A stretch of DNA of 35,328 nucleotides. Origin: a virus. Made by a program: the position numbers and the translations under genes. Position 1 is the first letter of the stretch. Each line of letters begins with the position of its first letter. Below the pieces are notes generated by a model. It did not search any database. It had not been told where the DNA came from and saw nothing but the letters and a program-made list of their open reading frames with translations. Location: IMG/VR virus record IMGVR_UViG_2802429215_000001, positions 1 to 35,328 of that record. One strand, written 5' to 3'. Positions 2,467 to 14,501 of this stretch are shown piece by piece.

Positions 2467-5400
2467 TGAGTGTTGCTGAAATTCGACGTGAAACGTTTTA
2501 TAAGCTAACGAATAGCGCAGACGTGCCAGAAGTTCCGAGTGGAAATAGGAACTTATACGCAATTTCAAAAAATAGCGGAACATACACTAGTGGTGTTAGC
2601 GAATTTGTTCAAAATATTGAAACAGGCGAAATAAGCTGGAAAACAGCGAGTGTAAGCGATTCGCAATTTGGTGGGTTTACAGCAACAATTGGAACGACCT
2701 ACAGAAACGTTTATGGTATCAAAATTCCAGTCGTGCAAGGCAAAGACATACTGGTTAGCCTGACAGATGACCGCTTGATTAAAAACTATGTCATGTTTTG
2801 GGGTGAAGATAACACTCTCGTTAAAAAAACAATAAAATATACGACTAACCATTTTAAAGTTCAAGCTAACCAGCTCGAAAATGTAAGCTACTTGACGTTT
2901 AGGATTGGCGTCAAAGAAAACACGCAAGAAATTGGTACTTTGATTAAGACCAAAATTAAAGTTGAATATGGCAATGTGTACACCGACTGGACGCCAGCGC
3001 CTGAAGACTTCTGGTCAACAACCGCGCTCGTACCAACGCAGGAAGAACCTTACTTGTGGAAATTTGAATATATATACTATTCAGACGGCAGTGTTGAAGT
3101 TACACAGCCAGTCAATTTAACAAAACAGAATGCTCAAAGAACATCTCGAGACACAATTCATAATGTACGCATTGCGGTTCGTGATTCGACTGACAGTCAT
3201 AATGTAGCTTTCTTTGATAATATTTCTGGCATTCGTTACCAAAGTGCTAATTTACAGCGATTCTTGGCTGGCTCGGCTAGCATTTTGACGATTGAGTACA
3301 ATTCGAAAGACATTGACACGATTAGAACTGGCTGTAAGCTTGCTTTTATCTACAAGCAGCGCGCTTACTGGTTGAATATCATGGGCTTGAACAAGAAAGG
3401 CTACAAGGTTGAAATCACAGCTTACTCGCTCGGTCTAGAGCTTAACCAAGAGGAGCGAGGCGCACACAAGCCAGCTAATGCAATGAGTTTTGCTGAATAT
3501 TTGGCTTATTACGACCCAGAGCATGCTTTGGAAATAGGCGTTAACGAAGTGGCAGACAAACGTATCAAATTGGAGTGGACGGGCACAGACACGATTCTGG
3601 CGCGTCTTTTTTCAATTGCAAACAGCTTTGATGCCGAACTTGAATTTACTGTCGAGCTAAATCAAGATTATTCGTTAAAACGTCAAGTTTTAAATATCTA
3701 CAAGAAAGGCAATCTTGGTTCTAATCGCGTAGCTAGTCCAATTCGTGTTGGACGTGGCTTGAAAGTTATCAATTACAGCGACAACTTGAAAGAATTGCGC
3801 ACTGCAGTACGTGCTACTGGTAAGGACGGATTGACCATCGACGGACTGAACAAGAAAGTCTACGATGATGACGGCAATCTGCTTTACTATTCAAATGGCA
3901 TGACTGTATATGCGCCTCAGAGCCGTGATAAATATCCGTCAGTCGGCAAGAAGTCGAACGATAACTGGATTATTAAAGAACTCGGAGAGACCGAATACAG
4001 CACTAAAGAAGCACTTTGGGGCTACATGCTCGGAGAACTCAAAAAGATTTGTGTTCCAGAAATTACATACGACATCGAAGGTGCTGTCGATGGCGATGTT
4101 GGAGACACACGTACATTAATCGATGACGTGCATTACGACCCGCCTCTGTATGTTCAAGGGCGCATTTCAGAGCTGACAGAGGATTTAATCACTGGCAAAG
4201 TTACGAAGTCAACGCTTACGAATTTTGAACGTAAGTACTCGCAAGTCGCTAGCGAATTACTAAAACAAGTTGAACAGCTAGCAAATGACGCAGCACCTTA
4301 CATTGTTCGCTTATCAACTGATAATGGCTACAATTTTAAAAACGGGAAAGGCACGAGCACAATCACAGCTAAACTTGAGAAGTATGGCAAAATTGTAAAC
4401 GCAAATTGGAAGTGGCTAATTAATAACAACATCGTTAGCGATAATAACAGCGTCACAATCAACGCTAGTCAAGTTATTGGCACACTAAACGTCGTAGCTA
4501 TTGCAACCGTTGACGGTAACGAGTTAGCTCGTGAATACATCACTTTTACCAATTCTGACGATGGTGTTGGCATTAAATCAATCAAACGTTATTACACGAC
4601 TAACGACCAAGCAGAGGGTGTCACGGCAGGCGGTCAAAACTGGTCTACTAAACCAACGACTGTAACAGCAGACAAAAACTATATGTGGTCGTATGACGTC
4701 ATCACGTACACGAATGACACAAGTTTAGTTACTGAACCAGCTGTCATTGGAGCTAGAGGAAATGACGGTTTAGACGCAGACACGACAGGTGTCACAGAAG
4801 CACTTGACAAAGCTAAGCAAGAGTTGACTGCTTTATCAGCGAATATCGAAAAAGTGCGAGATGATTCGCTTGCAGCAGTCGAAGAAGCCAAACAGCAACT
4901 CACTACTGTAGCTAATGACTTGGGCACCGCTAAGCAAGATTTGCAAACGCAAGCTAGCCAACTAAAAGTACAAGCTAGCGCACAGTCAGAATTGACTAAA
5001 CGTGTAAGTAGCGTTGAAGAAACTGCTAATGGCACGAAGACGACTGTTAGCGAATTAAGTAAGACAGTAGAACAAAACAGCAAAGACATTACAAGTGTTA
5101 CTGCACGAACTAAGACAGTTGAAGATGACCTGACAAGCACTAAAACGACTTTGTTACAAGTGCAGACGACAGCTAACAGCGCAAGTCAAAAAGCGGCAAC
5201 ACTTGAAACTGGTTTGGACGGTGTCAAGGCTGATTTAGCTGCAACTACAGCAACTGCCGACACGACTAAAACAAATCTCGCTAACTACCAAGCGTCAATT
5301 GACCAAGCAGTGGCTAGTCTGCAAAGCAGTTTACAAACTACAGACGGCAATGTAAGCAGTCTACAAACGCAAATCAATGCAGTACCTGGACAAATCACTA

Positions 5401-7225: not shown

Positions 7226-7561
7226 ATGGCAACAACAGAACTTATCAACGTAGACGAAATCACTCAACCTTTCGACTTAGCGCAAGCACTCACTTACATG
7301 AAAGAGAACGGTGAATACGTGCGCTATATTGCAGGAAATTACGACCTGTACATGCACATCGAGCACGAACGTAAGCCGGTCGTAATCAACGGCAAACGTC
7401 AATTTAAAGAGTTCAGCAAGGTCGTTGGTATTTCTAAATTCGGCGGTTCAATCCTTAGCCTTCCACTTGATGGATTCGCTGACGCTAAATGTTACATCAT
7501 GCAATTCGACGAAGATGGTAATCCGATTTGGGATTTGCCAGAAGAAACCACTGCTGAGTAA
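7226..7561 (+). CDS. Hypothetical protein between the tail and lysis modules
   Basis: ATG preceded by AAAGGAG. 111 aa. No motif recognised. Confidence 0.6.
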   Translation: MATTELINVDEITQPFDLAQALTYMKENGEYVRYIAGNYDLYMHIEHERKPVVINGKRQFKEFSKVVGISKFGGSILSLPLDGFADAKCYIMQFDEDGNPIWDLPEETTAE

Positions 7562-7811: not shown

Positions 7812-8005
7812 AACGTTATTTTGAAAAATTAGGAATCAAGGTTTTGAAAACTATGGCGCAGTCAGCAGTTGGCGTCATCGGTGCTAGTACGTTAATTACA
7901 CAAGTTGACTGGAGAGTGGTTGTTTCAACCGCTCTTTTATCTGGCTTGGTTTGTGTTCTCACGAATTTGTCTGATTTGAAGGAGGAAGATGTCGATGAAG
8001 ATTAA
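7808..8005 (+). CDS. Holin (small, two transmembrane segments, acidic C-terminus)
   Basis: 65 aa. The pattern [14 protein letters not shown]...[25 protein letters not shown] resembles phi LC3/r1t-type holins. It lies immediately upstream of the endolysin and overlaps it. Confidence 0.8.
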
Positions 8006-9269
8006 ACGATTGTTAGCAGGTGCGCTTTTAAGCACCAGCTTATTATTGCAGTCTACAGCTTACGCGGCAGTTGGCGACCAAGGCGTCGACTGGTCACGTT
8101 ATCAAGGCCAAAACGGTATTTTTGGCTATGGCCATGATAAGTTTGCTATTTGTCAAATCGGTGGCGTGAATGGCGGCGGTATGTACGGTCAAACCACATA
8201 TGAAACACAAGTAGCGTCAGCAATTGCTCAAGGTAAACGCGCACATACTTACATTTGGTACCAAGTTGGCGGAAATGCAAGCCTTGGCGAGCAAGTGTTA
8301 AATACATTTTTGCCGCAAGTTCAAACGCCTAAAGGCTCAATTGTTGCCTTAGACTACGAAAGCGGCGCTAGTGCTGATAAACAGGCGAATACTAACGCAA
8401 TCTTGCATGGCATGCGCATGATTAAAGCGGCAGGTTATACGCCTATGTATTACAGCTACAAGCCTTACACAGTCGCTAATGTGTACGCGGACCAAATCAT
8501 TCGTGAGTTTCCGAACAGCTTGTGGATGGCTGCTTATCCAAATTACGCAGTAACACCAGCGCCAAATTATAACGTCTTTCCGTCAATGGACGGTGTAGCG
8601 ATTTACCAATTTACATCGACTTATATTGCAGGCGGTCTTGACGGTAATGTCGATTTGACTGGTATTACCGACAATGGCTATACTAAGCACGATAATCCTA
8701 AAACTAATACACCAGCTATCGCTCAAGGTCAACAAGCGGACAACACGCCAAAATCTGACATTGCTAACGGCAATCAAGTGAAAGTTAAATTTAGCGCTAA
8801 CAGCTGGGCTACTGGTCAAGGTATTCCAAACTGGGTTAAAGGTAGAACATACAGTGTAGCGCAAGTGTCTGGCAATCGTGTATTGCTAGCTGGCATTAAT
8901 TCGTGGATCAATAAGGCAGACGTTGAAATTATTTCAGTCTCATCTGCGCCAATTCAAGCACCAGCAACTAACACTTACACAGTACGTTCTGGCGACACAC
9001 TTTCTAGCATTGCTGCAAAATTTGGTACAAGCTATCAAGCGTTGGCTAGTCTCAATGGTATTGCTAATCCAAATCTTATCTACGTTGGACAAGTATTGCG
9101 TGTCAATGGTTCAGCAAGCACTGGTTCGGTTTACTACACCGTTCGCGCAGGCGATAACCTATCAGCTATCGCTAGTCGATATGGCACAAGCTACCAATCA
9201 ATTGCAGCGCTAAACGGTCTTGCTAATCCAAATTTGATTTATGCTGGTCAAACACTTAAAATTAAATAG
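7989..9269 (+). CDS. Endolysin: Sec-type signal peptide + GH25 muramidase + SH3-like spacer + two LysM repeats
   Basis: The N-terminus [28 protein letters not shown] is signal-peptide-like. The catalytic region aligns by eye with Cpl-1-type GH25 (LDYE...QANTNA...AGY.P.YYS.KP...FPNSLW...FPSMDG). Two LysM units are present ([13 protein letters not shown]..., [13 protein letters not shown]...). Confidence 0.9.
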
Positions 9270-9280
9270 ACACTTTAACA

Positions 9281-9313
9281 CCCCTAGTCTTTAATGGTTA
9301 GGGGCTTTTTTTT
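9281..9313 (+). terminator. Rho-independent terminator after the endolysin
   Basis: Stem CCCCTA/TAGGGG followed by an 8-T run. Confidence 0.7.
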
Positions 9314-9367
9314 GGTATAATAAAATCATGAAACAAGACTTGACTCTTGGCTCGTAACCGAGTTTAC

Positions 9368-9397
9368 GCCCAGTGTTAACGCGCTGGGTCTTTTTTT
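9368..9397 (+). terminator. Second rho-independent terminator
   Basis: Stem (G)CCCAG/CTGGG(T), 10-nt loop, then TCTTTTTTT. Confidence 0.6.
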
Positions 9398-9445
9398 ATG
9401 CGCAGAAAAAATTTAAAAAAACACAAAAATATTTGTAGAAAAGTG

Positions 9446-9474
9446 TTGACAGTATGTAGTATATATACTATAAT
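9446..9474 (+). promoter_or_regulatory. Consensus sigma-A type promoter (TTGACA-17-TATAAT) with an embedded 14-nt palindrome TAGTATATATACTA (9457-9470)
   Basis: Perfect -35 and -10 hexamers with a 17-nt spacer. A perfect palindrome spans the spacer and the -10 element. Confidence 0.8.
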
Positions 9475-9507
9475 ATACTTGTAAGATAAATAAAGACGAA
9501 AGAGGTA
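9446..9507 (+). repeat. 62-bp promoter/leader cassette, copy 1 (identical to 10061..10122)
   Basis: ttgacagtatgtagtatatatactataatatacttgtaagataaataaagacgaaagaggta is read identically at both sites. Confidence 0.95.
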
Positions 9508-9513
9508 AACAAA

Positions 9514-9852
9514 ATGAAAGAAATCATGACACGAGCTTGGGAAATTGCAAAACAAGGTCAAGCTAAATTTGGCGGTAAAGTCAGCGAATACATTTCAGAA
9601 GCTTTAAAAGAAGCATGGTTTGAATATCGTTCAGAAAAAGAAGAAAATACTTCAGCTAAAATGGAAGTAGTTCTTGCTAAATTAAGAAAAAACCAAAAAT
9701 TTACAATCGCAACATTGATTGAACAATCACACGAACTTGAATTTAACGAAGTAATGCACAAAGCTGGTGCTTACTACGGTATCGAAGTAATCGCGGACGG
9801 CGACAAAGCTACTACAGTATACGTTAGCGAACGCACTTGGGAAGCAGCTTAA
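9514..9852 (+). CDS. Moron gene 1, hypothetical 112-aa protein
   Basis: ATG 7 nt after GAAAGAGG in the duplicated leader. N-terminal motif RAWEIAKQGQAKFGGKVSEYISEALKEAW. No function recognised. Confidence 0.7.
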   Translation: MKEIMTRAWEIAKQGQAKFGGKVSEYISEALKEAWFEYRSEKEENTSAKMEVVLAKLRKNQKFTIATLIEQSHELEFNEVMHKAGAYYGIEVIADGDKATTVYVSERTWEAA

Positions 9853-9871
9853 TCTTTATTAAGGAGAATAC

Positions 9872-10051
9872 ATGGCAGAAGAATTAACAGCTCGTCAAAG
9901 AGCTGACAAAAAATGGAATGAAAAAAATAGAGAACATAGAAATTACATGACCAAAAGGTCGACGGCTCGCGGTTTTATTCGCAACCATGCGACAAAAGAA
10001 GACTTGCTTGAATTGCAGGAACTTATCCAAGAAAATTTAAAAAAATTTTAA
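9872..10051 (+). CDS. Moron gene 2, small basic 59-aa protein (below the ORF-track cutoff)
   Basis: AAGGAG at 9861-9866, ATG at 9872, stop at 10049-10051. Translation: MAEELTARQRADKKWNEKNREHRNYMTKRSTARGFIRNHATKEDLLELQELIQENLKKF. Confidence 0.55.
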   Translation: MAEELTARQRADKKWNEKNREHRNYMTKRSTARGFIRNHATKEDLLELQELIQENLKKF

Positions 10052-10060
10052 AAAAAGTTC

Positions 10061-10089
10061 TTGACAGTATGTAGTATATATACTATAAT
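10061..10089 (+). promoter_or_regulatory. Consensus promoter TTGACA-17-TATAAT with palindrome TAGTATATATACTA (10072-10085)
   Basis: Identical to the promoter at 9446-9474. Confidence 0.8.
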
Positions 10090-10122
10090 ATACTTGTAAG
10101 ATAAATAAAGACGAAAGAGGTA
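10061..10122 (+). repeat. 62-bp promoter/leader cassette, copy 2 (identical to 9446..9507)
   Basis: Direct comparison of the two sequences. Confidence 0.95.
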
Positions 10123-10128
10123 TTTAAA

Positions 10129-10497
10129 ATGATTAAATGGAACGGAAAATCAACAAACGGAACTTGGAAAAAAGAAATTATCGCAACCGACTATGAAGAA
10201 CTTCTAGAAGAATTAGTTGATCGCGACATCATCGACGGCTATTGGAATATGGATAGCCAAGCATTCGATGGGCTTTGTGATTGTTCAGAAATGCTTGAAA
10301 AACTTCGTGACGAATATCAAGAAGCCATCGAAGAAGATGACGATGAGAAAATGGCAAGTTTTGAAAAGCAATTCGATGATATTGATTGGCATGAAGACGT
10401 GTTTAGTAAATTATCTGAAGATGATTTTAAATATGTAATCCGCGGTTGCAATAGCCAAGCCTACTATCAAGAATTTGAAGAAGTAGAAGAAGATTAA
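10129..10497 (+). CDS. Moron gene 3, strongly acidic 122-aa protein
   Basis: ATG after the duplicated leader RBS. Very Asp/Glu-rich (EEDDDEK, EEVEED). No family recognised. Confidence 0.7.
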   Translation: MIKWNGKSTNGTWKKEIIATDYEELLEELVDRDIIDGYWNMDSQAFDGLCDCSEMLEKLRDEYQEAIEEDDDEKMASFEKQFDDIDWHEDVFSKLSEDDFKYVIRGCNSQAYYQEFEEVEED

Positions 10498-10499
10498 TC

Positions 10500-10524
10500 A
10501 AGCGGTCATTACGACCGCTTTTAT
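10500..10524 (+). terminator. Rho-independent terminator (short T tract)
   Basis: Stem AAGCGGTC/GACCGCTT, 5-nt loop, then TTTTAT. Confidence 0.55.
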
Positions 10525-10540
10525 AAAAAGGAGAAGCAAT

Positions 10541-10810
10541 ATGGCTTACAATTGGCAACAGTTTAAGAACGGTCTTTTCGGATTTTCGTACGATTACGAA
10601 GAAATGCTAGCGAAGTTAAGAAAAGACGTCGCAGCAAGTGATGTTGGCGATAAAGTCGTCGTCGTTCGTTATCGTAGAGATGATACCAACTACAGACCTA
10701 TCCAAGATTATCTGCACGATGGCGAATCAGTAAGTGAAGATGAAGAATACAGTTTTGAAAAAACAGCTGATGTTTTGGAAGAAATGGAAGCAATGAATCG
10801 TATTTTTTAA
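10541..10810 (+). CDS. Moron gene 4, hypothetical 89-aa protein
   Basis: AAAGGAG RBS before the ATG. Acidic C-terminal half. Confidence 0.6.
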   Translation: MAYNWQQFKNGLFGFSYDYEEMLAKLRKDVAASDVGDKVVVVRYRRDDTNYRPIQDYLHDGESVSEDEEYSFEKTADVLEEMEAMNRIF

Positions 10811-10826
10811 GGAGTAGGAATAAAAT

Positions 10827-11042
10827 ATGGCAGTAAAGAAAATTGAAATAGCACAGCTAGCTATAGCAGAAAAACTAGCTTTGGCTGGTTCAGAATTAAA
10901 TATAGAAGATGCTTTAGATATTTTAGATCGTACCAAAGACAGCACTCTCAAAGAGGTCTATTCAAAAGATAAAAGTTTTGTTGCTATCTGGGACTTACTC
11001 AAAAAACATAACTTTGAAAGATATCAATCAATTGTCGCTTGA
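10827..11042 (+). CDS. Moron gene 5, hypothetical 71-aa protein
   Basis: AAGGAG at 10809-10814 upstream of the ATG at 10827. Last gene before the attP region. Confidence 0.6.
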   Translation: MAVKKIEIAQLAIAEKLALAGSELNIEDALDILDRTKDSTLKEVYSKDKSFVAIWDLLKKHNFERYQSIVA

Positions 11043-11071
11043 ACTTATCTAAAAATATATGTTATAATAAG

Positions 11072-11100
11072 AGAGCCTTATTTAAGGCTTTCTTTATTTT
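11072..11100 (+). terminator. Rho-independent terminator
   Basis: Stem AGCCTT/AAGGCT, then a T-rich tail. Confidence 0.55.
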
Positions 11101-11107
11101 ACAACCG

Positions 11108-11131
11108 CACCCGATTTTTCGGGTGTTTTTT
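11108..11131 (+). terminator. Rho-independent terminator
   Basis: Stem CACCCG/CGGGTG, 6-nt loop, then TTTTTT. Confidence 0.7.
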
Positions 11132-11370
11132 AGTGCAATAAAAAAAGCCTTGTCCATAAAGCTTAAGGCGGGGAATTGGCGGGGACGAGCGCTAGAAAGC
11201 GCATAGTATCAGCATTCTTGTTTTTCTACTAAAAAAATGAGATTTTCATGATACCTTTCAATATCGAATTTCAGCGTTATTTTGCAGGTGTTATTGAGGA
11301 ATAAAACAAGAATAAGCAGCTATTTTCAGGTGTAATTAGGTGTTGAGACGGGGACAAATACGGGGAAATT
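11132..11370. other. Probable attP region (core not identified)
   Basis: Non-coding segment directly downstream of the integrase 3' end. Two pairs of CGGGGA-containing direct repeats (11167-11185 and 11348-11366) flank an AT-rich centre. An 11-nt inverted repeat lies at 11214-11224 and 11303-11313. CAGGTGT-ATT-AGG direct repeats are also present. Confidence 0.5.
11145..11156 (+). repeat. Degenerate inverted copy (AAGCCTTGTCCA) of the 18-bp repeat at 12557 and 15090
   Basis: 12 of 18 nt match contiguously, then the sequence continues taaagctt where the full repeat has gaagct. Confidence 0.6.
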
Positions 11371-12531
11371 TCACTTAATTGCTCGCAAGAATGAATCGGT
11401 AACTTCGCTTGCTACCTCGTCTTTGATATGCGTATACTTTTGGGTCATGTATGCTGTTGAATGTCCTAAAGCTGCAGCCATATGTTCAACTGGCACACCA
11501 GCGATTTGACCTTGCGTAGCGAAGAAGTGCCTCATCATGTGAGGCGTTATGTGCATGTCGCAAGCTTCGTTTACTTTTCTAAAAACCGCATAAATTCGTG
11601 AGCAAGCAACTGGCTGTCCTAATGTTTTTTTGGTTTTTTCTCCAGCATCTAAAAAAAGAAAATCATTCTTGTTTAGAATACGCCCAGACTCTTTTGCTAA
11701 TTTGCGAGAGACTTTGGTTGCGTATTGTAATAACTTGGTCGTTTCTTCGTCGACAACAATATAGCGTTCAGAGCTTTTAGTTTTCATACCTTTTCCGTTC
11801 GGACGGTAAAAAGTTCGACTCTCATCTAAAAGTATTTTAAAACGTGACCCAATTAATTGTAACGAGCCTAATTTAACCCCAAAAACTTCGCTTTTCCGGA
11901 GTCCAAAATAAGTAAGTCTAACCATTGCATATTCGTATTTTGTCAATAGTTTTCTAGCGCAAGCGTCCCATTCGCGAAACTCTTCTAAAGAAATTCTTTT
12001 GTTTTTTGGCGGGTTTTTGCTTTCGCCGATATAGATTTTAAAAACCGGATTTTTGTCTAAATAGCCATTTACTACAGCGTCATTGAGCATCGCTTCAAAA
12101 ACGGAATTTATCTGTCTTACAGATGAGCGGGTCAATCTCTTCAGCAATCCAGTCATATATTTCTCGTATTCAAGACGTTCAATATCTTTCAATCGCATAT
12201 TTCCGTATTTTTTAGCAAAGTGTCTGTTGTATACATTCCTTTTGTCGACTATCGTATCTGGTGCCCATCGGCCCGTTTTAATACGGTTCTCGCTGTATAT
12301 TTCCCAATAATCGTTGACCGTCATGTTTTTCTTCGGGTCATACTCATTGTTTGCGATTTTATTTTCAATTTCAGCAAGCGCGTGTCTAGCTTCAGCAAGT
12401 GTTTTTAATCCGCTAGCGCTTATTTCTTTTTTCTTGCCGTTTAATTTAAAGTTTCGGCGAACGTAGTAGCGTTTGCCTTTCTTAGTTTCATATGTATAGA
12501 TATTTGGATATTTTGTTTTATTGTATTTCAT
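11371..12531 (-). CDS. int: Tyrosine integrase with an N-terminal arm-type DNA-binding domain
   Basis: Catalytic motifs GLRKSE, HMMRHFFAT and LGHSTAYMTQKYTH. The N-terminus KYPNIYTYETKKGKRYYVR is typical of the AP2-like arm-binding domain. AAAGGAG RBS. Confidence 0.9.
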   Translation of the reverse strand: MKYNKTKYPNIYTYETKKGKRYYVRRNFKLNGKKKEISASGLKTLAEARHALAEIENKIANNEYDPKKNMTVNDYWEIYSENRIKTGRWAPDTIVDKRNVYNRHFAKKYGNMRLKDIERLEYEKYMTGLLKRLTRSSVRQINSVFEAMLNDAVVNGYLDKNPVFKIYIGESKNPPKNKRISLEEFREWDACARKLLTKYEYAMVRLTYFGLRKSEVFGVKLGSLQLIGSRFKILLDESRTFYRPNGKGMKTKSSERYIVVDEETTKLLQYATKVSRKLAKESGRILNKNDFLFLDAGEKTKKTLGQPVACSRIYAVFRKVNEACDMHITPHMMRHFFATQGQIAGVPVEHMAAALGHSTAYMTQKYTHIKDEVASEVTDSFLRAIK

Positions 12532-12764: not shown

Positions 12765-13328
12765 TTATTTATCTAAATTATCAATGGCATATTGCGCTTC
12801 TGATTCCGTAAATTTTTCACCAGATTCAGAAATTAGCTGATCATAGATAGCGTCTGGAGACATTGCCATGCTTTCTTGGTAAGTTTTTGCTTGTTTCAAA
12901 GCGGCTTTGTTGTAATCAAAGTTAGAGTTGTCAATAGCATATTGAGCTTCTTCAGGAGTGAACTTTTCGCCCATTTCAGAAGAAAGTTGATCATAAATAC
13001 CTTGTTTTGACATATGCATATTTTTGTAATAGCTTTTTGCTTGTTTCAAGGCAGCTTTCTTGTAATTAGCTTTCAAGTGGTCAACAGCATATTGAGCGTC
13101 TTCTTCTGAATATTGGTCATAATCAGAAGTCAATTGGTCAAAGATACCTTGCTTAGACATGTGCATGTTCTTGTAGTAGCTTTTTGCTTGTCGTAATGCC
13201 GTTTTTTGAGTAGTAGTAGCAGCATAAACAACAGTCGGTTCGTTAACCGCAGGGACGTTAACGACATCAAGCATTGCTGCACCAAGAATAGCAGTAGCAC
13301 CGAGCATAAAGACAGTTTTCTTCTTCAT
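12765..13328 (-). CDS. ltp: Ltp-family superinfection-exclusion-like protein: three tandem Ltp repeats, signal peptide without a lipobox cysteine
   Basis: Three repeats of AL(K/R)QAK(S/T)Y...M.MS..GI(Y/F)DQL......(F/Y)..E(E/S)AQYA(I/V)D match the host cell surface-exposed lipoprotein (Ltp) repeat. Located between int and the repressor. The N-terminus is MKKKTVFMLGATAILGAAML and no Cys is present anywhere in the signal region. Confidence 0.8.
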   Translation of the reverse strand: MKKKTVFMLGATAILGAAMLDVVNVPAVNEPTVVYAATTTQKTALRQAKSYYKNMHMSKQGIFDQLTSDYDQYSEEDAQYAVDHLKANYKKAALKQAKSYYKNMHMSKQGIYDQLSSEMGEKFTPEEAQYAIDNSNFDYNKAALKQAKTYQESMAMSPDAIYDQLISESGEKFTESEAQYAIDNLDK

Positions 13329-13383: not shown

Positions 13384-13665
13384 TTATTTGCCGTTTAATT
13401 TTTTAAGTTCGTCAATGATTTGTTGATTTTGATTGATTAAAATCCAGTTTTGCTCAACAAGCGCAGATAAGTAAGAAAGTTTAGTTTGGTCAACACTATT
13501 ACTGCTAAAAGACAAAGCTAGACCAGCTTTTATTAATCCATTGCCAGCCATTTCATTCGCAATACGTCGGACTTGCTCGTAGCTTTCTTCTGGCAAGCCT
13601 TTAACACCACGCGCAGCAAGATAATCTTCAGTTTTTTCATTTTTTGTTTTTCCAAATAGTGCCAT
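13384..13665 (-). CDS. Hypothetical 93-aa protein co-transcribed with the repressor
   Basis: Its start overlaps the repressor 3' end by 29 nt. GGGGAAG RBS. No transmembrane segment and no family recognised. Confidence 0.6.
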   Translation of the reverse strand: MALFGKTKNEKTEDYLAARGVKGLPEESYEQVRRIANEMAGNGLIKAGLALSFSSNSVDQTKLSYLSALVEQNWILINQNQQIIDELKKLNGK

Positions 13666-14122
13666 TTTCTTCCCCTTTGTTTAATTTATCCAAAATCTTC
13701 TCTGTATTAGATAGCAACTGATTTAAGATATTGGTTTGTTGTTCTAAATAGGATAAGATTTCTTTTTGCAGCTCAAAATCAGCAACCTGTTGGTCGTGGC
13801 TCCTATCAAAGTTTTCTTTTGATGTGCCATGATTAATAGTGACCGAACTATTATTGTAGCTATTTAAGCCGTTGTTATCACCGTGAATTATATTTTGGTC
13901 TTTGAACGTTGAGTCAATATCTGATTTTTCGACTTCGAAATAATCAGCCATCTTTTGAATAATTCCAAAAGAAGGGGCGCTTCTGAGTTTCATATAATCA
14001 GTAATTGTCCCTGGAGCAACACCGATAGCGTCAGCCAACTCTTTCTGAGTGATTCCTTTCTTCTTTCTATAATAGGTAATATTATCAGCGATAATCTGCA
14101 TACGTTGTTTGTTTTTATCCAT
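13637..14122 (-). CDS. cI-like repressor (XRE-family HTH)
   Basis: HTH ITQKELADAIGVAPGTITDYMKLRSAPSFGIIQKMADYF. Divergent from a Cro-like gene across an operator-containing intergenic region. Confidence 0.85.
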   Translation of the reverse strand: MDKNKQRMQIIADNITYYRKKKGITQKELADAIGVAPGTITDYMKLRSAPSFGIIQKMADYFEVEKSDIDSTFKDQNIIHGDNNGLNSYNNSSVTINHGTSKENFDRSHDQQVADFELQKEILSYLEQQTNILNQLLSNTEKILDKLNKGEENGTIWKNKK

Positions 14123-14208: not shown

Positions 14209-14237
14209 TTGACAATACGAAAAAATCGTATTATAAT
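14209..14237 (+). promoter_or_regulatory. Rightward early promoter TTGACA-17-TATAAT
   Basis: Perfect hexamers. The spacer is entirely occupied by the palindrome ATACGA-N5-TCGTAT. Confidence 0.8.
14214..14232. promoter_or_regulatory. Operator palindrome AATACGA-aaaaa-TCGTATT inside the rightward promoter
   Basis: Perfect 7-nt arms. A half-site ATACGA also occurs at 14185-14190. Confidence 0.7.
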
Positions 14238-14288: not shown

Positions 14289-14501
14289 ATGAAATGGACA
14301 TTGGAAGCTCTCCGAATTGCCGCTGGGATGACGCAGGAAGAACTTGCAAGTGAGTTCGGCGTCTCTACCAACACGCTTGCGAAGCTTGAAAACGACAGTT
14401 CGAATATCGGAATGATTATGCTAAAAAAATATATGTTTAAATTTCACGTTGGATTTGATGATATTTTTTTAGGCAAGAAATACGAAAATTTCGTATTTTA
14501 A
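14289..14501 (+). CDS. Cro-like XRE-family HTH regulator
   Basis: ATG at 14289 after AAAGGAAAAAG; the TTG at 14250 is too close to the promoter. HTH MTQEELASEFGVSTNTLAKLEN. Confidence 0.8.
   Translation: MKWTLEALRIAAGMTQEELASEFGVSTNTLAKLENDSSNIGMIMLKKYMFKFHVGFDDIFLGKKYENFVF
14478..14498. promoter_or_regulatory. Distal operator palindrome AAATACGAAA-A-TTTCGTATTT at the 3' end of the cro-like gene
   Basis: Same ATACGA-N5-TCGTAT core as the operator at 14215-14231, about 265 bp away. Confidence 0.6.

Follow-up and report, generated by a model that had tools for sequence, protein, structure and literature searches.

A probable acr-aca13 anti-CRISPR locus with a duplicated promoter cassette in a temperate phage of the Streptococcus bovis/equinus group

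The IMG/VR virus record IMGVR_UViG_2802429215_000001, analysed here over its positions 1 to 35,328 as a single window of 35,328 nucleotides, comes from a temperate siphovirus of the Streptococcus bovis/equinus group; its closest kin, the S. macedonicus prophage Javan288, is placed in Moineauvirus. Between the lysin gene and the phage attachment site (attP) lies a block of five small genes, referred to here as P1 to P5, which an initial annotation made from the letters of the window had singled out as a self-contained accessory block in the lysin-attP hotspot. That description holds, and we consider it very probable that the block is an acr-aca13 locus, encoding anti-CRISPR (Acr) functions and also Aca13, an anti-CRISPR-associated (Aca) repressor. 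The anatomy of the block, the identities of its products, the co-occurrence of operator and Aca types across related loci and the homology of P3 to AcrIIA15 were observed here; DNA binding and repression have been published for homologues. On this reading, five genes that would pass as "hypothetical" become a regulated anti-CRISPR locus with a named regulator and operator.

Gene content and the duplicated promoter cassette

Two terminator-like hairpins follow the lysin gene, as the initial annotation had noted in closing the lysis operon there, and the five small open reading frames (ORFs) that it had predicted downstream are present, among them one for a basic protein of 59 amino acids (aa; P2, isoelectric point (pI) 9.8) and one for an acidic protein of 122 aa (P3) (Table 1). 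The genes are arranged around a 62-bp cassette, TTGACAGTATGTAGTATATATACTATAATATACTTGTAAGATAAATAAAGACGAAAGAGGTA, which is present exactly twice, both times on the plus strand, and for which none of 100 dinucleotide-preserving shuffles gave a match. Beyond the repeat itself the similarity runs on at 88% over 93 nt. Each copy contains a TTGACA-17-TATAAT promoter with a sigma-70 score of 12/12, the sole sites of that score between positions 7500 and 13500, and a 14-nt palindrome, TAGTATATATACTA, that spans spacer positions 6-17 together with the first two bases of the -10 element. The identical repeat, its perfect promoters and the palindrome over spacer and -10 all stood up as first described.

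No further copy of TAGTATATATACTA was found in the window at 0-1 mismatches. Perfect 14-nt palindromes are not rare by themselves (three in the window, against a first-order Markov expectation of 3.2 +/- 1.7), so the weight of this one comes from its position and from the comparative data presented below. An exact-pattern scan for the promoter core returned no match in a one-genome-per-species collection and five loci in a viral collection. Cassette copies inside one phage have phage-specific variants in common, which fits either gene conversion or selection by one common repressor.

The stop codon of P2 (10051) is followed after a 9-nt gap, without a terminator, by cassette copy 2, so that the two transcription units lack insulation from one another. 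Neither P4 nor P5 is preceded by a promoter of its own, and their expression must come from copy 2, copy 1 or both. The terminator that had been placed after the acidic gene was only partly borne out: a hairpin is present, but its T-run is weak, the terminator scan reported it on the minus strand only, and the true end of the block lies further downstream, at 11069-11126. The hairpin may be a leaky terminator, an attenuator or a processing site that sets the ratio of P3 to P4 expression. This G+C hairpin (AAGCGGTC…GACCGCTT), its weak T-run included, is conserved directly 5' of every P4 homologue, regardless of the preceding gene.

P2 and the operators that accompany it

Aca13 was defined in 2022 (Nucleic Acids Research (NAR), PMC8934645) and has since been characterised by Song et al. 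(NAR 2025, PMC12282945). Lacking a helix-turn-helix (HTH), it contacts DNA as a dimer by way of a coiled helix and represses the two strong acr promoters that flank its gene, a control described as "bidirectional", via an inverted repeat between -35 and -10 (PMC12282945). The evidence came from electrophoretic mobility shift assays, reporter repression and alanine mutants: a scrambled inverted repeat was no longer bound, and the substitutions K92A, W99A, R107A and S111A each left no repression (PMC12282945). Binding and repression were shown for an S. uberis locus and for other Aca13 loci, that is, for homologues of the system in the window (PMC12282945).

P2 is identical at 56/59 residues (95%) to the Aca13 prototype WP_094140901.1 of S. 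equinus AR3, whose sequence was taken from Table S1 of PMC8934645, and shares a 90% cluster with it. The contact residues K92, W99, R107 and S111 of AcrIIA32 correspond to R8, W15, R23 and T27 in P2, where the tryptophan and the second arginine are identical and the changes from K to R and from S to T are conservative. Judged by its sequence, P2 is Aca13, and by analogy with its published homologues we infer that it binds the palindrome in the window. The initial annotation had deduced a dedicated dimeric regulator from the palindrome and had left it without a name; the deduction stands, and the regulator is very probably the basic P2, encoded in the block itself.

Using gp111, the gene for P1, as a probe, we gathered 75 distinct loci and typed their promoters and Aca genes. 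A palindrome was assigned to the family of the window if it matched TAGTAYAYRTACTA with at most one mismatch inside the promoter spacer, because at two mismatches the pattern gave four off-register matches in S. thermophilus-type promoters, in which the right arm of their own palindrome runs into a TATACT -10 element. So defined, the family is present in 14/15 loci that encode an Aca13 domain and in 0/60 that do not. Among the 14 are S. salivarius-type phages whose gp111 is only ~51% identical to that of the window and whose Aca13 is fused to AcrIIA31; these carry TAGTACATGTACTA or TAGTATATGTACTA at the same promoter position. Conversely, gp111 DNA ~95% identical to that of the window occurs at L025 together with an Aca12-like gene, and at L021-26 and L031 with no recognisable Aca. 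The palindromes found there at the same place are CGTATATTTAAATATACG and TTAGTTATAACTAA, respectively, both unrelated to that of the window and lying in spacers that match the window spacer at 6/17 and 4/17 positions. A distant gp111 thus keeps the palindrome, whereas gp111 DNA that is ~95% identical and stands without Aca13 has unrelated ones, and on this comparison the association between operator and Aca13 is not just a matter of common ancestry.

Within the palindrome family, an Aca13 allele 72% identical to that of the window, with Q8 and S27, pairs with the centre TACATGTA in L019 and Javan213, and the window allele (R8, T27) pairs with TATATATA; between the two centres there is a symmetric double change that keeps the dyad. 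Natural alleles paired with operator centres in this way offer a ready test of how a non-HTH protein reads DNA, and the pairing bears on the detection tools already built on Aca13. At L021-L024, L026 and L031, where a gp111 ~95% identical to that of the window is preceded by the spacer palindrome TTAGTTATAACTAA and neither Aca12 nor Aca13 is present, a protein of 182 aa is encoded downstream together with an acidic one of 101 aa; a canonical paratox of 59 aa is present in L026 as well.

The genes behind cassette copy 2 change from phage to phage. In the window, Javan288 and L006 this place is taken by P3, in L003 and L030 by a protein of 125 aa, in Javan237, L006 and L025 by orf16.1, and in Javan213 by AcrIIA32.1 (87% identical). 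AcrIIA32.1 is a validated inhibitor of SpyCas9 and St3Cas9, and orf16.1 is a candidate that tested negative in the work of Song et al. That sibling phages have different cargo behind the cassette agrees with the earlier suggestion that it is a reusable promoter/operator unit.

P3, the other products and the block boundaries

The initial annotation could assign no product of the block to a family. This must be revised: P1 belongs to PF07410, P2 to Aca13, P3 goes with the C-terminal domain (CTD) of AcrIIA15, and P4 goes with the CTD of Aca12 and, distantly, with paratox. The remote homology and structure checks that it had proposed placed four of the five products in or near named families; P5 stayed an orphan and P1 gave no fold match.

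P3 has a pI of 4.05, with 38 aspartate and glutamate residues among its 122, and its sequence runs MIKWNGKSTNGTWKKEII…AYYQEFEEVEED. Its AlphaFold2 (AF2) model (predicted local distance difference test (pLDDT) 92.6) contains three strands and six helices, and in a Foldseek search of the PDB the top three matches were all AcrIIA15 (best 8jft_C, E 1.3e-3, probability 1.0, template modelling (TM) scores 0.51/0.56; next match E 0.8). With an exhaustive profile search, 43 relatives were recovered, two of which (P0113 and P0120) have an N-terminal HTH and match AcrIIA15 at E 2.4e-9 and 4.3e-21, and a profile built from 32 stand-alone relatives matches 8jft_C, the AcrIIA15 CTD, over its full length at E 7.3e-6 (next match 0.065). 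A phmmer search of the PDB with P3 gave only a spurious repeat match, to a lysozyme, and a fold search of BFVD returned one uncharacterised siphovirus protein.

In AcrIIA15 of Staphylococcus (PDB 8jfo, 8jft, 8jfu), the CTD is a mimic of protospacer-adjacent motif (PAM) double-stranded DNA that blocks Cas9 (Nat Commun 2024, PMC10901769). Mutation of Y161/Y162 abolishes the inhibition of Cas9, and S157 and S158 are also listed among the residues essential for it (PMC10901769). The P3 stretch NSQAYYQEFE corresponds to SSQVYYHEFE of AcrIIA15, with NSQAYY at 108-113 facing S157-S158-x-x-Y161-Y162. Y112 and Y113 are the equivalents of the two tyrosines, Y113 being invariant and Y112 nearly so in an alignment of the family with AcrIIA15 included; S158 has its counterpart in S109, and S157 is replaced by N108. 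P3 starts at about AcrIIA15 residue 64, without the N-terminal HTH autorepressor domain, and is hence a relative of the CTD only. Profiles and model together identify P3 as a stand-alone homologue of that domain and, by analogy, as a candidate Cas9 inhibitor. The earlier proposal that the acidic protein is a DNA mimic or anti-restriction factor fits in its first part, P3 being related to a DNA mimic; since its target is most likely Cas9, an anti-CRISPR role is more likely than an anti-restriction one.

The P3 family occurs under three Aca regimes: with Aca13, as in the window; with an Aca11-like gene; and as a fusion to an HTH (AcrIIA15, P0113, P0120). The Aca11-like arrangement is found in S. 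uberis Javan626, where the P3-family gene lies downstream of the Aca11-like gene and the promoter palindrome is TATACAATATTGTATA. WP_094140903.1, in the same 90% cluster as P3, is encoded in S. equinus AR3 at a distance of two genes from the Aca13 prototype. Among the Acr sequences compared, which did not include AcrIIA33, AcrIIA34 or AcrIIA35, none matched P1-P5. P3 may already bear a name among AcrIIA33, AcrIIA34, AcrIIA35 and Cand1-5; AcrIIA34, described as a protein of low pI encoded downstream of aca13, is the likeliest of these to be P3. As kin of a structurally characterised PAM mimic, P3 could extend the AcrIIA15 fold to streptococcal Cas9s.

P1 matches the Pfam family Phage_Gp111 (PF07410) over its full length (residues 3-111) at 70.3 bits, against a cutoff of 27.1, and is 57% identical to orf110 of phage Sfi21. 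In acr loci of streptococcal phages, the conserved opening gene is that for Gp111. A fold search with the AF2 model of P1 (pLDDT 73) gave nothing better than E 0.29. In the S. uberis acr-aca13 locus, the first gene on the published map is AcrIIA3, and hhalign of Gp111 against this gene gave a weak match (22%, E 9e-4, 37 columns at 43% identity), taken as a hint. The gene in the AcrIIA3 position of phage 700P1 (L094 299-670) shares an N-terminal motif with Gp111 (EIMTxAW … LKEAW), and AcrIIA3, like Gp111, is reported to be toxic in E. coli. For orf1 of phage P7602, a homologue of P1, the tests of Song et al. in 2022 gave no inhibition and revealed toxicity in E. coli, so that the authors left its status open (PMC8934645).

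P4 shows 31-38% identity to the half of Sfi21 orf140b/Aca12 that is C-terminal and contains no HTH. Aligned with hhalign against eight paratox (Prx) sequences, it matched Prx columns 4-62 at 94.8% and E 4.9e-8. Its score against Pfam Paratox (PF24313) is 20.1 bits, under the cutoff of 27, and six relatives score 14.6-19.7 bits. Prx was the top match of the P4 profile in the PDB, at E 0.25, and phmmer of P4 against the PDB found no match. Paratox (PDB 6cka, 7n10) is a prophage-encoded inhibitor of ComR that binds it through residues E6, E9 and D32 (PMC8383118). The essential D32 corresponds to D56, which is invariant in the P4 family; E6 and E9 correspond to K25 and K28 in the P4 of the window and to variable positions in the family. 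Aca12 (PMC8934645; Sfi21 orf140b, L002 3811-4233) consists of an N-terminal HTH of Cro/CI type and a CTD whose homologues are P4 and, at a greater distance, paratox. Directly upstream of aca13 in L006 and Javan213 stands the P4 homologue, as if Aca12 had been split and its order reversed.

A wider proposal, to which we give a low probability, is that P4 and the C-terminal half of every Aca12 are a paratox-type module binding the DNA-binding domain of another regulator and, separately, that P3 founds a stand-alone branch of AcrIIA15-type PAM mimics found Streptococcus-wide under the three Aca regimes. If this held for P4, acr loci would have a second function, for example blocking ComR/Rgg-type quorum sensing and hence competence. 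Alternatively, P4 would act as an anti-repressor or sensor that tunes the activity of the Aca repressor. The similarity between P4, the Aca12 CTD and paratox hints at cross-talk of anti-CRISPR loci with competence control. Homologues of P5 were found neither in any library searched nor in ~90 fetched loci. For the five proteins together, PADLOC defence models gave no match and NCBIfam no meaningful one.

Table 1. Features of the block and its surroundings (window coordinates unless a locus is named).
Feature	Position	Strand	Remarks
Lysin gene	7989-9269		
Terminator-like hairpin closing the lysin gene	9281-9304	+	9-bp stem with 5 GC pairs, then T-run
Second terminator-like hairpin	9368-9389	+	
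Cassette copy 1, upstream acr-aca13 promoter	9446-9507	+	-35 9446-9451; -10 9469-9474; leader; ribosome-binding site (RBS) GAAAGAGG
Putative Aca13 operator TAGTATATATACTA, copy 1	9457-9470		palindrome family tracks the Aca13 domain across loci
P1, 112 aa	9514-9852	+	Phage_Gp111 (PF07410)
P2, 59 aa, pI 9.8	9872-10051	+	assigned to Aca13, non-HTH anti-CRISPR-associated repressor
Cassette copy 2, downstream acr promoter	10061-10122	+	-35 10061-10066; -10 10084-10089
Putative Aca13 operator TAGTATATATACTA, copy 2	10072-10085		
P3, 122 aa, pI 4.05	10129-10497	+	predicted stand-alone AcrIIA15 CTD homologue; candidate type II-A anti-CRISPR
G+C hairpin between P3 and P4	10500-10520	+	weak T-run
P4, 89 aa, pI 4.4	10541-10810	+	homologue of Aca12 C-terminal half, distantly paratox-like
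P5, 71 aa	10827-11042	+	orphan; good RBS
Two terminator hairpins, end of block	11069-11094 + 11107-11126	+	minimum free energy (MFE) -27.7, z -6.9
attP core region (approximate)	11140-11211		similarity to prophage-host junction L022 stops near 11211
Integrase gene	11371-12531	-	
G+C hairpin upstream of P4 homologues	window 10500-10520; L001 ~5120-5140; L006 ~1765-1785; L009 ~3010-3030		

Some features of the flanks deserve separate mention. A possible small transcript would start at an extended -10 element, TGGTATAAT (9313-9321), and end at the second terminator-like hairpin after the lysin gene. The ~75 nt after this element form three hairpins (fold of 9318-9398: MFE -23.2, z -3.3), and the unit 9313-9396 may represent a gene for a small RNA, situated between lysin and acr locus; it is conserved in Javan213, and Rfam gave no match. 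After P5, TGTTATAAT (11060-11068) is followed directly by the two strong hairpin terminators (z -6.9; unit 11060-11135), and Sfi21 has two comparable units of TGTTATAAT, short hairpin and T-run between lysin and orf110 (L002 2430-2590). These units are either recurrent small transcripts or merely terminators with chance -10 boxes. An Rfam scan of 9200-11400 gave no match near any threshold. Between the integrase gene and a CI-like gene, an ORF of 187 aa (12765-13328, minus strand) shows an N-terminus that resembles a signal peptide, together with three internal repeats (…ALKQAKSYYKNMHMSKQGI(Y/F)DQL…), and may encode a surface or superinfection-exclusion protein of the lysogeny module.

Proposed mechanism and comparison with known systems

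In an acr-aca13 locus of this layout, the two near-consensus promoters flanking aca13 would fire strongly early in infection. Copy 1 would transcribe gp111 and aca13, and copy 2, together with read-through from copy 1, would transcribe P3, P4 and P5. Aca13 would then accumulate, dimerise and occupy the palindrome over the spacer and -10 element of both promoters; because the palindrome overlaps both, one repressor could shut down both units, its own gene included. In the lysogen, Aca13 would keep both units at a low level. P3 would be the likely effector, an acidic mimic of the PAM duplex occupying the PAM-binding cleft of the type II-A Cas9 of the host, as the AcrIIA15 CTD does. The cassette might also work as a recombination joint, with sibling phages carrying other cargo behind it.

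Several points weigh against this account. L082 encodes a distant Aca13 (42% identical) and lacks the palindrome family. The published operator, for which binding was tested, is built on a GTACATGTAC core, not on GTATATATAC as in the window, where Aca13 and palindrome are a putative pair. The similarity of P3 to AcrIIA15 is remote, with ~21% identity, TM scores of 0.51-0.56 and a root-mean-square deviation of 5.9 A. A narrow P3 profile compared with the single AcrIIA15 sequence by hhalign reached 25% probability, over the C-terminal 26 residues, and so the broader profile and the bridging sequences were needed. AcrIIA15 is specific for SaCas9, and the target of P3 therefore cannot be inferred from it. 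The Aca13 neighbours orf1, orf16.1, Cand1 and Cand3 did not inhibit SpyCas9, St1Cas9 or St3Cas9. Finally, P1, P4 and P5 have no assigned role, and part of the block may serve something beyond anti-CRISPR.

Other explanations of the block have to be weighed against the same data. Its position between lysin and attP, called the "lysogenic conversion module" in papers on S. thermophilus phages, the terminators that bracket it and the resemblance of P4 to paratox, a prophage protein acting on host physiology, would suit a moron block in which both consensus promoters are constitutively active from the prophage and express genes for host benefit or superinfection defence. However, no PADLOC defence model matched, the promoters bear an operator for a repressor encoded in the block, so that unregulated constitutive expression is unlikely, and homologous cassettes drive validated anti-CRISPRs (PMC8934645; PMC12282945). 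Moreover, the gp111-led region persists in S. thermophilus phages that are virulent and without a lysogenic state, D4276 for example. We regard a moron block as improbable, and the constitutive expression expected in the initial annotation should probably be replaced by the published model, an early transcription burst followed by Aca13 repression. The same annotation had suggested that P1 and P2 form a toxin-antitoxin or abortive-infection pair, and P2, small, basic, DNA-binding and directly downstream of P1 in an operon that it probably represses, would suit the part of an antitoxin that autorepresses via the palindrome. Such a pair is nevertheless highly improbable: Gp111 stands without Aca13 in ~60/75 loci, with Aca12 or no known Aca instead, and Aca13 is also found away from gp111 (following P4 in L006 and Javan213) or fused to AcrIIA31 or AcrIIA32. 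Furthermore, the same operator precedes unrelated cargo, neither PADLOC nor Pfam gave a toxin-antitoxin match, and the Aca13 domain is an experimentally shown repressor (PMC12282945).

The palindrome might instead be an operator for the phage CI or Cro protein or for a host factor, which would link the block to the lysis-lysogeny switch. A third 12/12 promoter of the window, at 14209-14237 on the plus strand, has the same chassis and start region, TTGACA-17-TATAAT followed by ATACTCGTAAG, and also shows dyad symmetry in its spacer. It drives a gene for a Cro-like HTH protein (14289-14501) and diverges from the CI-like gene (13637-14122, minus strand). Its dyad, ATACGA-N5-TCGTAT, is however unrelated to TAGTATATATACTA, which occurs nowhere else in the window, and the type of palindrome follows the Aca type of the block even where the flanks are almost identical. 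A host factor would leave four different palindromes among phages of one species group unexplained. We hold this to be the least probable of the explanations considered; the acr promoters look like an early-promoter chassis into which another operator has been fitted.

Read as an acr-aca13 locus, the block has close counterparts. At the same position, Sfi21 has orf110 (gp111), orf74a, orf140a and orf140b, with attP and then the integrase gene beyond them. Its orf140a is AcrIIA5 (E 1.5e-85 to PDB 6lkf) and orf140b a homologue of the later-named Aca12, so the "lysogenic conversion module" between lysin and attP in these phages is an anti-CRISPR locus. The loci of Sfi21, O1205 and D4276 share with the window the genomic position, the family of the first gene (57% identical), the promoter chassis, a similar leader (…AAGATAAAG…AGAGGTAAACAAAATG) and a last gene with a P4-like domain. 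They differ in having a single promoter, with the dyad TTGAC-GTAT-GTCAA, an HTH regulator in Aca12, and AcrIIA5 as the Acr.

The nearest published system is the acr-aca13 locus of the S. uberis NZ01 prophage, of which phage 700P1 carries a near-identical copy (AcrIIA32 99% identical). Both loci have a regulator of one family, two strong promoters, one on either side of aca13, and in each promoter an inverted repeat that lies between -35 and -10 and borders the -10; small variable cargo follows downstream, between lysin and prophage end. In 700P1, a core, TTGACTTTTTAACGTACATGTACTATAATATAA, stands on each side of the Aca13-domain gene, and GTACATGTAC abuts the -10 in the same register as GTATATATAC in the window; 33 nt of the promoter core are identical there, against 62 nt in the window. 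As the core of 700P1 is duplicated too, the duplicated cassette is a hallmark of the acr-aca13 system and not the peculiarity of one phage. In contrast, the operator centre is TACATGTA there and TATATATA in the window, the contact residues are changed at two places (R for K, T for S), the Aca13 of the window stands free and is not part of an Acr fusion, gp111 takes the place of AcrIIA3 as first gene, and P3, P4 and P5 had no counterpart among the 2022 table sequences compared.

P3 shares with the AcrIIA15 CTD the strongly acidic fold of three strands plus helices (about five in that domain), the motif (S/N)SQxYYxEFE and, in P3 probably, control of its gene by a palindrome in its own promoter. 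Unlike AcrIIA15, it has no N-terminal HTH autorepressor, repression presumably being supplied in trans by Aca13, and its host is a Streptococcus, so that the Cas9 it targets, if any, is probably not SaCas9. P4 resembles paratox in aligning over the whole of Prx, in D56 within an I-x-D-Y motif, in its acidity and in being encoded at the attR-proximal end of the prophage, where it is the last gene in Javan288. It differs in scoring under the Pfam threshold, in being 89 aa long, extended by 20 residues at the N-terminus and interrupted by an insertion of 6, in the replacement by lysines of E6 and E9, both required for ComR binding, and in having the C-terminal halves of Aca12 regulators as its closest relatives. 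The locus as a whole is a new instance of a published system, and since the architecture was published in 2025, its core is not new biology. The homology of P3 to the AcrIIA15 CTD, the relation of P4 to the Aca12 CTD and paratox, and the natural pairs of operator and Aca13 allele may go beyond the published accounts.

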